Assembly: GCA_039831155.1 (NCBI GenBank)
Contig: JBDONT010000029.1
Span: 529-64,528, forward strand
Direction: 5' to 3'
Length of the DNA: 64,000 nucleotides
DNA from: Nautiliaceae bacterium
Lineage (GTDB): Bacteria; Campylobacterota; Campylobacteria; Campylobacterales; Nautiliaceae
Positions 28,969 to 64,000 of the stretch are shown one piece after another. The translations under genes were made by a program, and so were the position numbers. The notes beneath the pieces were generated by a model that was given only the letters and a program-made list of their open reading frames with translations, had not been told where the DNA came from and did no database searches. Positions within the stretch are counted from its first letter, which is position 1. Every line of letters starts with the position of its first letter.

Positions 28969-29332
28969 AAAGCCGTTTTGTGAAGAAGAGTTTTTATACG
29001 TAAAAACGCTAGAAGATATAAAAAACTCAAAACCGAATACCACTCTTATTTTTCATTACTGCGATTCCTCTCTTGAACTGTTTAATTTTTGTAAGCTAAA
29101 CAATATCGAATACGGAGTTATCGTAAATTCTGTAAAAGAGCTGATATTTTGTGCCAATTTAAATGCCAAATATCTTTTTTGCGAAAATTTAAAAAAAGCA
29201 AAAGAATTTCAAAAAATTGCCGATAATTATTTACTAGATTCGAAAATAGTATTTTTAGCGGATTCTCTAAATGAGATAGAAGAGATATCAAAATACACAA
29301 TTGATGCAATAAAATTAAAGGGGAACAAATGA
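28955..29332 (+). CDS. Hypothetical protein
   Basis: Overlaps both neighbours and has normal codon style; no motif recognised. Confidence 0.6.
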   Translation: MLILEKPFCEEEFLYVKTLEDIKNSKPNTTLIFHYCDSSLELFNFCKLNNIEYGVIVNSVKELIFCANLNAKYLFCENLKKAKEFQKIADNYLLDSKIVFLADSLNEIEEISKYTIDAIKLKGNK

Positions 29333-60532: not shown

Positions 60533-61651
60533 TTATATAAAAATCAAATCTTCTTTTTTTATTTCTCTATTTTCGCTTAAAATAGCAGCTCTTTCTATTA
60601 CGTTTATAAGCTCCCTTATATTCCCCGGATAATCATACTCAAGCAACGCCTTTTTAGCTTCTTCACTCAAAACCTTCTCTTTTAGAGAGTATTCTTTTAT
60701 AGTTTTTTTAAGTATATTTTCAGCAATTGGAATTATATCGTTTTTTCTCTCTCTTAAAGGTGGTATTTTAATAGGAATGGTATTTAAACGATAATACAAA
60801 TCTTCTCTGAATTTATTATTTTTTATCATCTCTTCAACGTTTTGATTTGTCGCACTTATAATTCTCACATCAAGCTTTATAGGTTTGGTACCTCCTAAAC
60901 GGTAAAACTCTCTCTCTTGTAAAACCCTTAGTAATTTTGCTTGAAGATTATAAGGCATTTCCCCTATTTCATCCAAAAACAGCGTCCCACCCTGGGCAAG
61001 TTCAAAAAGTCCGGTTTTATTGGAAGTCGCATCGGTAAAAGCACCCTTTTCATACCCAAACAACTCACTCTCAATTAAATTTTCAGGAATAGCACCCATA
61101 TTAATAGCTACAAATTTACCGTTTCTGCCACTATTTTCGTGAATAAACTTGGCAAACTCCTCTTTTCCAACTCCACTCTCTCCCAAAAGCATCACGTTTG
61201 CCATTGTAGGAGCCACTTTTTTAGCCATTTCAAGGACTTTTTTTGTATTTTCGTCGTTTGCTATGAAAGCCGGTTTAAACTCTACTTTTTTTCCTTTTGT
61301 TTTTTCTTTGACTCTTCTTTTTCTCTCAATTGCAGCTATTAAATCCTCTATTTCAAAAGGTTTTGTCAAGAAATCTTTAACTCCTAGTCTAAGTGCTTCT
61401 ATCGCTTTATTTAAAGTGGCGTTTCCGGTAATTAAAATAACCTCATACTTCCCTTTTAACTCTTTTACAAACTCAATTCCGTCTATTTTCGGCATAGTAA
61501 TATCGCTCACTATAACATCCACATCATCAGTTAACTTCTTTAACGCATCAATAGCGTTTCTAAATTCGACAACCTCATAACCTTCGCTTTTAAGGGCAAG
61601 TGAGAGAGATTTTCTCATATTTATGTCATCTTCTACAATAGCAACTTTCAT
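60533..61651 (-). CDS. flgR: Sigma54-dependent flagellar response regulator FlgR (no C-terminal HTH)
   Basis: Receiver + GESGVGKE, ESELFG.EKGAFTDA, DEIG, YPGNIREL; ends right after the AAA+ domain; conserved asd/flgP context. Confidence 0.85.
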   Translation of the reverse strand: MKVAIVEDDINMRKSLSLALKSEGYEVVEFRNAIDALKKLTDDVDVIVSDITMPKIDGIEFVKELKGKYEVILITGNATLNKAIEALRLGVKDFLTKPFEIEDLIAAIERKRRVKEKTKGKKVEFKPAFIANDENTKKVLEMAKKVAPTMANVMLLGESGVGKEEFAKFIHENSGRNGKFVAINMGAIPENLIESELFGYEKGAFTDATSNKTGLFELAQGGTLFLDEIGEMPYNLQAKLLRVLQEREFYRLGGTKPIKLDVRIISATNQNVEEMIKNNKFREDLYYRLNTIPIKIPPLRERKNDIIPIAENILKKTIKEYSLKEKVLSEEAKKALLEYDYPGNIRELINVIERAAILSENREIKKEDLIFI

Positions 61652-62016
61652 TCATCACCTTTTAAATAGAAATAAGCAATTCCGTTTTTTATAATGATAT
61701 CAAATCTTTGAGGTAAAAAAGTAAGAGTAGAGATATTACTAAGAGAAAAATTATCAACCTTATCCCTGGAATAAAGAATGACGTTTTTTAATAAAAAATC
61801 CATAATTTCATTTTTATGTTTATAGCAACATTTAATTACGGAAGAATCACAAGGCAAAGAGAAGAGAAACCTTCTTTTGGAATCGACCTTGCTAAGAGCT
61901 TTTGAGCAGTTGAATTTAAAATAACTAAGCTTATAATTACTAACCCTATACTGAAAAGAGATAAAATAATCCCCCCACAGATTAATAGTTATTAACAACA
62001 GTAGGATAATTCTCAA
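61648..62016 (-). CDS. flgQ: FlgQ-like exported protein
   Basis: Signal peptide; position between flgP and flgR as in C. jejuni Cj1026c-Cj1025c-Cj1024c. Confidence 0.55.
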   Translation of the reverse strand: MRIILLLLITINLWGDYFISFQYRVSNYKLSYFKFNCSKALSKVDSKRRFLFSLPCDSSVIKCCYKHKNEIMDFLLKNVILYSRDKVDNFSLSNISTLTFLPQRFDIIIKNGIAYFYLKGDE

Positions 62017-62527
62017 TATATCTGTTCCACTCTTGAGGATTTAATTTAACAGACAACACAACGCTATAAACACCGTTTTTAAAATCTTCTTCTTCTATTT
62101 GTGCCCCTCTTATAAGACCGTAAACATAAGCACGAAGTTGAGAGTTTTGTAAAATCATATTTTTTACCGTATCCCTTCCGTTTACTTGAATTCCGTACAT
62201 TTTTTCCGCCAAGGCTTTATACGCATCAACAATAGCCGCACGCCTTGCCATTACCATCGCTTGAGCAGTAGAACAGGTCCCATTACAAGGAGGAACTCCA
62301 ACACCTTTGGCTTCAAGTCTTAAAATACATTCTCCGGTTGTTTTATTAGTTAAAATACAAGTGTTTTTTTTATTTACCGGTTTTAAAGTAGTAGCAGAAT
62401 TAGAAATACTTTTTCCCGTTACCGAATTAGGAGTTGTACAATTAACGGTTAAAGAAGCGGGTTGAGCGGATTTTGATACGCAACCCGTTAACAATAATCC
62501 TCCTGCCAATAAAAATAATTTTTTCAC
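61982..62527 (-). CDS. flgP: FlgP-like LPP20 lipoprotein, copy 2
   Basis: Lipobox LLLTG-C; GVGVPP...AMVMARRAAIVDAYKALAEKMYGIQVNGRDTVKNM. Confidence 0.75.
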   Translation of the reverse strand: MKKLFLLAGGLLLTGCVSKSAQPASLTVNCTTPNSVTGKSISNSATTLKPVNKKNTCILTNKTTGECILRLEAKGVGVPPCNGTCSTAQAMVMARRAAIVDAYKALAEKMYGIQVNGRDTVKNMILQNSQLRAYVYGLIRGAQIEEEDFKNGVYSVVLSVKLNPQEWNRYIENYPTVVNNY

Positions 62528-62550
62528 TTCTTCTCCTTTTTAAAAGAAGA

Positions 62551-62568
62551 AGCAAAGAACGTTCCGAA
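62551..62568 (-). promoter_or_regulatory. Sigma54 (-24/-12) promoter of flgP copy 2
   Basis: TTCGGAACGTTCTTTGCT: GG-N10-GC spacing, close to the epsilon-proteobacterial TTGGAAC-N4-TTGCT consensus; intergenic. Confidence 0.8.
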
Positions 62569-62569
62569 A

Positions 62570-63127
62570 CTATTGTCTAGCTATATAATTCGGTCTGGTT
62601 TCTAATATTTCATTCCATTTATTTACATCAAGTTTTACGCTCATACTTACCGTATAAATCCCGTTTTTAAAATCTTCTTCTTCTACTCTAGCACCTTTTA
62701 CAACACCTTCAACATAAGCACGAAGTTGAGAGTTTTGTAAAATCATATTTTTTACCGTATCCCTTCCGTTTACTTGAATTCCGTATATTTTTTCCGCCAA
62801 CGCTTTATATGCATCAAGCACTGCAGCACGTCTTGCCATCGCTCTTGCTTGAGCTTCCGAACAAGTCCCATCACACGGAGGAACACCCACACCTTTTGCT
62901 TCTAGTAAAATAATACAAGATTTTTTAATCCCGTTTTCAATTATACACTCTTGATTACCGTATTTTACGGTTTGTATAAGCGGTTTTTGAGGTTTAGGAA
63001 CGACAATAGGTTTAATAACAGGTTTAGAAGTAACTGAGGACGTAGTGTTACAATCAACTAATTCTAATCTCTTACAACATCCGGTAAATAATAAAATACC
63101 ACCTATCGCTAACGCAACTTTTCTCAT
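62570..63127 (-). CDS. flgP: FlgP-like LPP20 lipoprotein, copy 1
   Basis: Lipobox LLFTG-C; same core as copy 2 (ARAMARRAAVLDAYKALAEKIYGIQVNGRDTVKNM). Confidence 0.75.
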   Translation of the reverse strand: MRKVALAIGGILLFTGCCKRLELVDCNTTSSVTSKPVIKPIVVPKPQKPLIQTVKYGNQECIIENGIKKSCIILLEAKGVGVPPCDGTCSEAQARAMARRAAVLDAYKALAEKIYGIQVNGRDTVKNMILQNSQLRAYVEGVVKGARVEEEDFKNGIYTVSMSVKLDVNKWNEILETRPNYIARQ

Positions 63128-63157
63128 CTATTCTCCTTTTACTTTATAATTACCTAA

Positions 63158-63184
63158 TTATCGGCAAAAGGAGAAAAAATTTAA
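63158..63184 (-). promoter_or_regulatory. Sigma28-type promoter of flgP copy 1
   Basis: Perfect GCCGATAA (63165-63158) with TAAA 14 nt (TTAA 15 nt) upstream, in the gyrA-flgP intergenic region. Confidence 0.7.
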
Positions 63185-63191
63185 CAAAAAA

Positions 63192-64000
63192 TTAAATTAA
63201 TTCCTCTTTTTGCGACGGAGTTTTAGCGATTGAAACTACTTTATTATCGTTATCAAGTTTCACAACTCTTACACCTTGAGTGTTTTTACCGGTTTTAGAA
63301 ATTGAATCAATTGAAACTCTTATCATTTTTCCACTGCTTGTTAAGACCATTAAATCGTGATTTTCTTCAGTAGCCACAACACCTACTAAATCTCCGGTTT
63401 TTGAAGTAAGTTTCATAGCAATTACACCCTTGCCTCCACGATTTGTAAGCCTATAAAGATTAGCTTCGGTTCTTTTTCCAAACCCTTTTTCGCTAACAGT
63501 TAAAATCTCTTGATTTTCATCTTTTAAACTTAAAGCTCCTACAACCTCATCGCCTTCGATTTTAAATTTAATTCCACTAACCCCTCTTGCACTTCTTCCC
63601 ATCTCTCTTACGGTATCAACCGGAAATCTTATAGCCATACCCTTTTTAGTAACGATAAACAATTCTTTATCTTCCGGTTTTACGATTTTAGCAGTTACAA
63701 GTTCGTCATTTTCATCTATCGTAATTGCTCTAACTCCGGTACTTCTTATGTTTTTAAATTCACTTAAATTCGTTCTTTTTACTATTCCGTTTTTTGTAAA
63801 GAATGCAAGAGATTTACTCTCATCAAAATCACTTGTTTTAATAATAGTCTGAATTTTTTCGTCTTTATCGAGGTTTATTAAATTTACAATCGCCTTACCT
63901 TTACTTGTTCTACTGCCTTCAGGGATTTTATATACTTTTAACCAATGCAGCTGACCTTTATCGGTAATAATCATTAAAGTATCGTGAGCTTTTGCCACAT
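63192..64000 (-). CDS. gyrA: DNA gyrase subunit A, C-terminal beta-pinwheel (5' part outside the window)
   Basis: Repeats such as GRSARGVSGI, NRGGKGVIAM, GKNTQGVRVV; the ORF is open to the window edge. Confidence 0.93.
   Translation of the reverse strand, partial: VAKAHDTLMIITDKGQLHWLKVYKIPEGSRTSKGKAIVNLINLDKDEKIQTIIKTSDFDESKSLAFFTKNGIVKRTNLSEFKNIRSTGVRAITIDENDELVTAKIVKPEDKELFIVTKKGMAIRFPVDTVREMGRSARGVSGIKFKIEGDEVVGALSLKDENQEILTVSEKGFGKRTEANLYRLTNRGGKGVIAMKLTSKTGDLVGVVATEENHDLMVLTSSGKMIRVSIDSISKTGKNTQGVRVVKLDNDNKVVSIAKTPSQKEELI

Follow-up and report, generated by a model that had tools for sequence, protein, structure and literature searches.

The flgP locus and its two promoter hairpins

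The window, the whole stretch of 64,000 nucleotides (nt) analysed here (contig JBDONT010000029.1 of assembly GCA_039831155.1, positions 529 to 64,528), belongs to an uncultured Nautiliaceae metagenome-assembled genome (MAG; G000) of 1.53 Mb with 32% G+C. On its minus strand, the 3' part of gyrA is followed by flgP1, flgP2, an open reading frame (ORF) of 122 amino acids (aa) and flgR. The two flgP paralogs are the subject of this work. In front of each, the DNA of an alternative-sigma promoter is complementary to the ribosome binding site (RBS) with its Shine-Dalgarno (SD) sequence, and a transcript holding both segments is predicted to fold into a hairpin. The two genes, their promoters and the hairpin arms are the following.

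62570..63127, minus strand: flgP copy 1 (flgP1), lipoprotein of 185 aa of the LPP20/FlgP family, ATG at 63127-63125 (Pfam LPP20, 29 bits; PDB profile match)
63158..63183, minus strand: sigma-28 (FliA)-type promoter of copy 1, TAAA-N14-GCCGATAA, with TAAA at 63183-63180 and GCCGATAA at 63165-63158; the same motif stands before flgP in ~20 Nautiliaceae genomes
63164..63175, minus strand: 5' (anti-SD) arm of copy 1, UUCUCCUUUUGC, within the -35/-10 spacer (sequence, RNAfold)
63131..63142, minus strand: 3' arm of copy 1, GUAAAAGGAGAA, SD included (sequence, RNAfold)
61982..62527, minus strand: flgP copy 2 (flgP2), lipoprotein of 181 aa, GTG start at 62527-62525 (Pfam LPP20/FlgT_N; 59% identity to copy 1)
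62551..62565, minus strand: sigma-54 (RpoN)-type promoter of copy 2, GGAACgttctTTGCT (sequence; 11 similar promoters stand before flagellar genes in G000)
62542..62556, minus strand: 5' (anti-RBS) arm of copy 2, UUUGCUUCUUCUUUU, overlapping the -12 element (sequence, RNAfold)
62523..62537, minus strand: 3' arm of copy 2, AGGAGAAGAAGUGAA, over the SD and the GUG start codon (sequence, RNAfold)

An earlier sequence-only reading of this DNA had claimed for copy 1 that TTCTCCTTTT (63175-63166) is the perfect complement of AAAAGGAGAA (63140-63131). The two segments are indeed exact reverse complements, and the 5' arm sits between TAAA and GCCGATAA, which places it in the sigma-28 spacer as had been read. 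RNAfold extends the stem to 12 base pairs (bp) (63175-63164 with 63142-63131) and adds an inner helix of 6 bp. The hairpin has a predicted free energy of -18.3 kcal/mol and a z score of -5.0, and none of 200 shuffled sequences folds as well.

For copy 2, the pairing of CUUCUUCUUUU (62552-62542) with AGGAGAAGAAG (62537-62527) comprises 9 Watson-Crick and 2 G-U pairs and covers both the SD and the GTG start, in agreement with the same reading. The stem predicted by RNAfold is longer, with 15 bp (62556-62542 with 62537-62523) closed by an AAAA loop, at -14.9 kcal/mol and z = -4.1, and it begins inside the TTGC of GGAACgttctTTGCT. All coordinates given in that reading proved right. At the level of motifs, both genes are immediately preceded by an alternative-sigma promoter of their own (TAAA-N14-GCCGATAA for copy 1, GGAAC-N5-TTGCT for copy 2).

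The neighbouring genes on the minus strand are these.

63192..63998, minus strand: gyrA, 3' part, running off the window, stop codon at 63194-63192 (TIGR01063 gyrA, E 5e-87; ORF list)
61648..62016, minus strand: small conserved ORF of 122 aa (tblastn matches directly after flgP at ~25 Nautiliaceae loci, 38-96% identity)
60533..61651, minus strand: flgR, sigma-54 activator response regulator (NF049963 FlgR, Campylobacter model, 572 bits; Sigma54_activat domain)

Neither flgP copy matches a model in NCBIfam, and the identity was therefore taken from a PDB profile search. There, the FlgP family profile matches the 171-aa chain 9hmf_C (E 2e-54) and chains deposited as FlgP (8z5n, 9yds). Both copies carry a lipobox with its Cys (LFTGC and LLTGC) and the Pfam LPP20 domain. 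With FlgR encoded downstream, fliA and rpoN both present in the genome and the promoter motifs kept in relatives, the earlier gene and promoter assignments are sound. The 122-aa ORF, which overlaps the 3' end of flgP2 by 35 nt, has no match in Pfam or NCBIfam; its position is that of Cj1025c (flgQ) in C. jejuni synteny. The two flgP copies share a perfectly identical block of 75 nt (62785-62711 and 62197-62123; protein YGIQVNGRDTVKNMILQNSQLRAYV) against 67% nucleotide identity overall, a pattern that would fit gene conversion across this tract or exceptionally strict constraint on the segment. An Rfam scan of 61500-63400 returned nothing but sub-threshold chance matches.

Predicted start sites and the fold of long and short transcripts

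The position of the arms relative to the transcription start site (TSS) was judged by promoters mapped in C. jejuni. The supplements of the differential RNA sequencing study of that organism, which hold the -50 to +1 sequences of mapped FliA- and RpoN-dependent TSSs, place the TSS 9-11 nt after CGAT in FliA promoters (flaG, flaA, Cj0977) and 11-14 nt after the GC of TTGC in RpoN promoters (flaB, flgI, flgB, flgL, flgP) (PMC3656092). The primary TSS of C. jejuni flgP is given there behind TTGGAAC-N5-TTGCTT, with a 5' untranslated region (UTR) of 26 nt (PMC3656092). With these distances, the TSS is expected at ~63151-63149 for copy 1 and at ~62540-62538 for copy 2, and both 5' arms would lie upstream of it, as had been proposed. 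The leader of copy 2 would measure 11-13 nt from the expected TSS, which is short but typical in this genome. TTGCT ends 21-23 nt before the start codon in 9 of the 11 credible sigma-54 promoters of G000 (contigs C12, C21, C28, C30 and C38). This implies that its middle-class flagellar genes may have uniform and unusually short 5' UTRs of ~10-13 nt.

In a read-through context of 160 nt at 37 °C, the SD of copy 1 is predicted to be paired with a probability of 1.00 and that of copy 2 with a probability of 0.98. In RNA that begins at the predicted TSS, the corresponding values are 0.00 and 0.12. The SD and start region is sequestered in the long isoform by prediction, and the proposed difference between an occluded RBS in the long leader and a free one in the short leader is very clear in silico.

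At 65 °C, the long RNA is still predicted to pair the SD with a probability of 0.99 in copy 1 and 0.84 in copy 2. These values bear on a different use of the same hairpins, in which the RBS is masked in all long RNAs and opened by ribosomes terminating upstream or by heat. The 5' arm follows the gyrA stop by only 4-10 nt in two relatives (G007 and G011), within reach of a terminating ribosome, and the U-run of copy 2 pairing with AGGAG resembles a fourU thermometer. In the window, however, the distance from the upstream stop codon to the arm is 17 nt in copy 1 and 14 nt in copy 2, about as far as the footprint of a terminating ribosome extends. The SD also remains paired when the upstream ORF is forced single-stranded in a mimic of ribosome cover, with probabilities at 37 °C and 65 °C of 1.00 and 1.00 in copy 1 and of 0.98 and 0.84 in copy 2. 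A fourU thermometer is expected to open with heat, whereas SD pairing is predicted to persist at 65 °C (0.84-0.99), and the prediction thus gives no sign of a switch by melting at likely growth temperatures. We consider a coupling or temperature gate very improbable.

Recurrence of the sigma-54 arm in the family

The sigma-54 design recurs in relatives with different sequences. Next to the TTGC of flgP2 we find the arm CTTCTTCTTTT in G000, TTTTCCTTTTT in the sister genome G005 and TTCTCCTTTTT in G002, three differing sequences that each pair with their own SD region; the second flgP copy of G006 has no arm. The sigma-54 flagellin promoters of the family show an arm adjoining the -12 element in all eight cases found, with divergent and partly compensating sequences. 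Seven of these eight flagellin genes lie directly behind a sigma-28 flagellin gene, and in G017 two sigma-54 flagellin copies stand in tandem. The arms are listed by genome (5' arm/3' arm).

G001: TTGCTATTCT/AGAATAGCAA, extending into the ATG
G004: TACTCCTTT/AAAGGAGTA
G011: stem of 14 bp that ends in GCAA just before the ATG
G012: GCTTCTTTT/AAGGAGAAGC
G019: CTTCTTCT/AGAAGGAG
G007, G008 and G017: TCTCCTT/AAGGAGA

The arms differ in register and loop length between genomes, and tests of own against swapped arms took the place of a fixed-register covariation model. The pairing of an arm with its own RBS beats swapped pairing with p = 0.002 for 22 sigma-54 promoters and with p = 0.015 when only the flaB/flgP2 group is taken. 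Opening the RBS costs 6-18 kcal in this group, compared with 2-5 kcal in the sigma-54 genes for rod, hook, L-ring and hook-associated proteins. We regard the swapped-pair tests and these energies as the best evidence for a selected pairing; they suggest that the design is tied to sigma-54 genes behind a sigma-28-driven paralog.

Outside the family the picture is different. All non-Nautiliaceae Campylobacterota inspected, among them Helicobacter, Sulfurospirillum and Wolinella, have a sigma-54-type flgP promoter with a longer leader, and no anti-SD arm was seen in the flgP promoters inspected of Campylobacter, Helicobacter, Sulfurospirillum and Wolinella. The pattern of the mapped C. jejuni flaB promoter has no match in 401 genomes of the order, a sample without C. 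jejuni.

The place of these hairpins directly after abundant upstream genes (flgP1, flaA) also fits a role for the upstream transcript. They could terminate transcription weakly or with the help of a factor, or form a stem that protects the 3' end of the gyrA, flgP1 or flaA mRNA, and RBS occlusion would then be incidental. A scan for terminators predicted none between gyrA and flgP1, and the copy 2 hairpin is the sole terminator-like site in 61500-63400, flagged by the lenient scan only. Its stem, however, contains no more than 3 G-C pairs, and AAAAAA separates it from any U-run, which is not the make-up of an intrinsic terminator, and the copy 1 hairpin has a structured interior of 25 nt and no U-tract. 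The flagellin examples run on into the coding region (UGGGAUUU), and in several of them a canonical terminator, distinct from the hairpin, stands before the sigma-54 promoter. A terminator would have no need of a 3' arm that invariably falls on the SD or start codon of the following gene, as it does here. A terminating or stabilising function is improbable in our judgement.

The sigma-28 arm is restricted to few lineages

Before flgP and immediately behind gyrA, ~20 Nautiliaceae genomes carry a TAAA-N14/15-(G)CCGAT promoter. Its spacer takes three forms.

G000, sister G005, G007 and G011 (4 genomes): real anti-SD, CTCC in a T-run
G017, G023, G008 and G012: T-run with one C
G001, G004, G002 and all g5 genomes: no arm (in g5, the promoter overlaps the coding end of gyrA)

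The arm of G007 forms 13 perfect base pairs (TTTTTCTCCTTTT/AAAAGGAGAAAAA), and that of G011 is CTCCTTTTT/AAAAAGGAG. When the 15-nt spacer was permuted in a longer context, the fraction of shuffled spacers that equalled or beat the native arm was 0.004 in G005, 0.006 in G007, 0.058 in G000 and 0.11 in G011. The flagellin promoters of relatives served as sigma-28 control, because the G000 assembly holds no flagellin gene. None of ~14 sigma-28 flagellin spacers of Nautiliaceae contains a CTCC arm; these spacers are T/A-rich. The arm is thus not generic to sigma-28 promoters. We conclude that it is lineage-restricted, with moderate evidence for its selection. The search for the arms in other Nautiliaceae, which had been named as a check on the gate, gives mixed support: the sigma-54 arm is recurrent, and the sigma-28 arm is found in only 4 of ~20 genomes.

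A regular-expression scan of G000 for further sigma-28 promoters gave mostly chance matches inside genes. In the G000 assembly (96.7% complete), an 889-aa FlgK/L-like protein is the sole Flagellin_N match, and in sister G005 a fragment of a flagellin sits at the end of a contig. Assembly gaps probably account for the missing tandem flagellin genes. The promoter class of flgP varies within the family: it is mostly of sigma-28 type, and behind gyrA in L062 (Nautiliaceae MAG FK190211) it is of sigma-54 type, TGGAAT-N5-TTGCT, overlapping the gyrA stop (loci L062, L015/L016 of G004, G001).

All Nautiliaceae leaders of the sigma-28-type flagellin genes contain a conserved hairpin gaagtaGCAAGGATGCtac with A(A/G)GGA in the loop, ~40-20 nt before the flagellin ATG (loci L032, L033, L036, L038, L041, L042, L045, L053, L058, L145-L150 and L152). 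It looks like a candidate CsrA-type binding site. A site of this type is known for the flaA mRNA of C. jejuni.

A proposed start-site-dependent occlusion of the RBS

The arms, their predicted stability, the conserved promoter motifs and the recurrence of the design can be joined in one mechanism. The promoter DNA of each flgP gene would double as the 5' arm of a hairpin, the -35/-10 spacer in the sigma-28 promoter and the -12 element with the next 10 nt in the sigma-54 promoter. The 3' arm would be the SD, together with the start codon in copy 2. A polymerase that starts at the gene's own promoter would begin downstream of the 5' arm and produce an mRNA with an open RBS. A longer RNA, entering from gyrA or from flgP1 into flgP2, would hold both arms, fold and hide the RBS. 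In consequence, FlgP1 would be made only with active FliA, and FlgP2 only with active RpoN and FlgR. The untranslated read-through RNA would probably be open to Rho-dependent termination.

Rarity, composition and the weight of the evidence

The rarity of the hairpins was measured as the free energy to open positions -15 to +3 in a leader from -70 to +15, for 1526 crude gene calls in the whole genome. Copy 1 requires 16.2 kcal/mol and ranks second of the 1526, copy 2 requires 15.4 kcal/mol and ranks fourth. The genome-wide mean is 4.6 kcal/mol with a standard deviation of 2.6 and a 99th percentile of 12.6 kcal/mol.

Such values need not reflect selection. The hairpins could be a by-product of composition without function, in which a few C residues within the promoter spacers and -12 to +1 segments, both T-rich in Campylobacterota, meet A-rich GGAG leaders and the flgP pair forms the tail of the distribution. 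We exchanged promoter zones among 409 genes with intergenic upstream regions. Energies of at least 14 kcal occur in 0.98% of real and in 1.03% of swapped promoter/RBS pairs, and the overall distribution is the same, so that promoter/RBS complementarity is not under selection across the genome as a whole. Composition alone, with T-rich promoters set against A-rich SD leaders, yields such hairpins at a rate of ~1%. Genes with a high opening energy often carry CCTTTTT just before TATAAT, facing an AAAAAGG leader (for example C12:59839, C33:4696 and C38:31150), and the sigma-54 promoters of C. jejuni are likewise T-rich after TTGC. A genome-wide design of sigma-70-type promoter/SD pairing is ruled out by the swap permutation, as the pairing is compositional and not gene-specific. 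Elsewhere in G000 (contig C30, ~28975-29045, plus strand), TCCTTCCT faces AGGAAGGA at the SD as a 9-bp anti-SD within an apparent operon. It lies between an FlgM-like gene (ending ...AQAMAKSLL*, with a sigma-28-type promoter) and a 137-aa gene, with no promoter between them.

Both the permutation result and the compositional rate of ~1% weigh against start-site-dependent occlusion as a selected function, and several further observations do so as well. The purine-rich tail of gyrA can compete with the SD for the arm of copy 1, and the opening energy accordingly falls from 16.2 kcal to 8.4 kcal when more of this tail is included. The sigma-28 arm is patchy: G002, L062, all g5 genomes and the complete genomes from the GTDB genus of G000 (G001, G004) lack it. 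When the pyrimidine-only arm of flgP2 is shuffled, it often still pairs as well as the native one (fraction 0.11 in G000 and 0.60 in G005). Two sigma-54 genes of G000 with a housekeeping gene upstream have no arm, namely FlgH, which directly abuts its co-oriented upstream neighbour, and the FlgK/L-like gene, which comes after rpsI. A weak arm of 8 bp is present in the same genome at a sigma-54 gene that is transcribed divergently. Finally, we infer the TSSs (by homology to mapped C. jejuni promoters), the read-through and the effect on translation.

A single hairpin is a compositional event of ~1%, two in adjacent paralogs have a chance of ~1e-4, and comparative evidence must therefore decide. 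The two adjacent paralogs are both among the top 4 of 1526 genes. CTCC recurs in the flgP spacers of a second genus and in none of the ~14 sigma-28 flagellin spacers. The arms of all eight sigma-54 flagellin promoters differ and yet keep their pairing, including matches outside the SD (as in TTGCTATTCT/AGAATAGCAA), and both swapped-pair tests are in line with this. Other sigma-54 genes with similarly AT-rich segments from -12 to +1 have no arm. A protein operator, which would appear as an inverted repeat in the DNA, was rejected, as arm sequence and spacing vary between orthologs and self-complementarity is kept.

We conclude that TSS-dependent RBS occlusion, and with it insulation from read-through, is plausible at both flgP genes and somewhat favoured over the other readings. 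A purely compositional origin appears unlikely, though it deserves serious weight. The translational gate for flagellar genes that had been proposed from the letters stands in part. It is carried by the recurrence of the sigma-54 design with different arms in flgP2 of three species and in 8/8 sigma-54 flagellin promoters. It is weakened by the absence of the sigma-28 arm from most relatives, by the armless sigma-54 genes behind housekeeping genes and by the compositional background of ~1%.

A broader rule for the Nautiliaceae can be put forward tentatively, and we hold it to be possible rather than probable. Sigma-54 genes directly behind a sigma-28 paralog (flaA to flaB, flgP1 to flgP2) would use their own -12 element as anti-RBS arm, flgP behind gyrA would use the sigma-28 spacer in the same way, and the paralogs would be kept in separate assembly stages. 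Under this rule, the FlgP paralogs would join the basal disk at different times, and selection would act on core promoter DNA both for sigma binding and for RNA pairing. Occlusion at the flgP genes, if true, would add a translational level to the transcriptional enforcement of the flagellar hierarchy in these bacteria. It would explain how flagellar genes can lie directly after an essential housekeeping gene without a terminator, and it would point to a functional split between the FlgP paralogs. To annotation and synthetic biology it would offer a compact promoter (34-56 nt) that insulates its own gene from upstream transcription.

Comparison with known systems

The idea is less novel than the sequence-only reading had assumed, given the precedents of McCormick et al. 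2021 (PMC8208050) and of fold-back inhibition in IS10. In the B. subtilis sigma-B regulon (ctc, yvrE), a 'dual induction' has been described in which the RBS is hidden by structure in sigma-A read-through isoforms and transcription from internal sigma-B promoters begins beyond that structure (McCormick et al. 2021, RNA 27:791, PMC8208050). The translation efficiency of these isoforms was shown experimentally to differ up to 100-fold, and the authors suggest that the same principle may hold for other sigma factors (PMC8208050). Similar to the sigma-B genes, flgP lies behind a housekeeping operon, with a long RNA predicted to mask the SD and start and an internal alternative-sigma promoter. In contrast to B. 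subtilis, the system described here involves sigma-28 and sigma-54 in a MAG of a thermophilic member of the Campylobacterota and is predicted from sequence. Its hairpins are short and local (34-56 nt), and their 5' arm is itself part of the core promoter, lying in the -35/-10 spacer in one case and on the TTGC of the -12 element in the other. If true, isoform-specific translation of the sigma-B style would extend to sigma-28 and to the enhancer-dependent sigma-54 in a distant phylum.

A related logic is reported for IS10/Tn10, and also for IS50. RNA entering from outside is said to pair a segment from before the TSS with the transposase RBS, so that only promoter-initiated mRNA is translated. 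For the protection of IS10/Tn10 from external promoters, Davis, Simons and Kleckner 1985 (Cell 43:379) are cited in a later article (PMC13181058). The likeness is one of logic alone, since the flgP genes are chromosomal structural genes in a conserved locus without a transposase. The purpose in IS10 and IS50 is the limitation of transposition, whereas in flgP it would be insulation between regulatory classes. In pyrC and pyrD of E. coli and Salmonella, a shift of the start by a few nucleotides upstream enables the RNA to form an SD-occluding hairpin, which shorter RNAs cannot form. There, in pyrC, a single promoter with a nucleotide-sensitive choice of start is at work, whereas two different sources of transcription are proposed for flgP.

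The closest comparison by gene order is C. jejuni, which shares gyrA (Cj1027c), flgP (Cj1026c), Cj1025c and flgR (Cj1024c) and has a flagellar promoter of flgP's own right after gyrA. It differs by a single flgP, a sigma-54 promoter and no anti-SD arm seen. The principle of start-site-dependent translation is already established. New here are the sigma-28 and sigma-54 setting in a thermophile of the Campylobacterota, the very compact hairpins, an arm that is itself core promoter DNA, and its occurrence in tandem paralogs of the late and middle classes.

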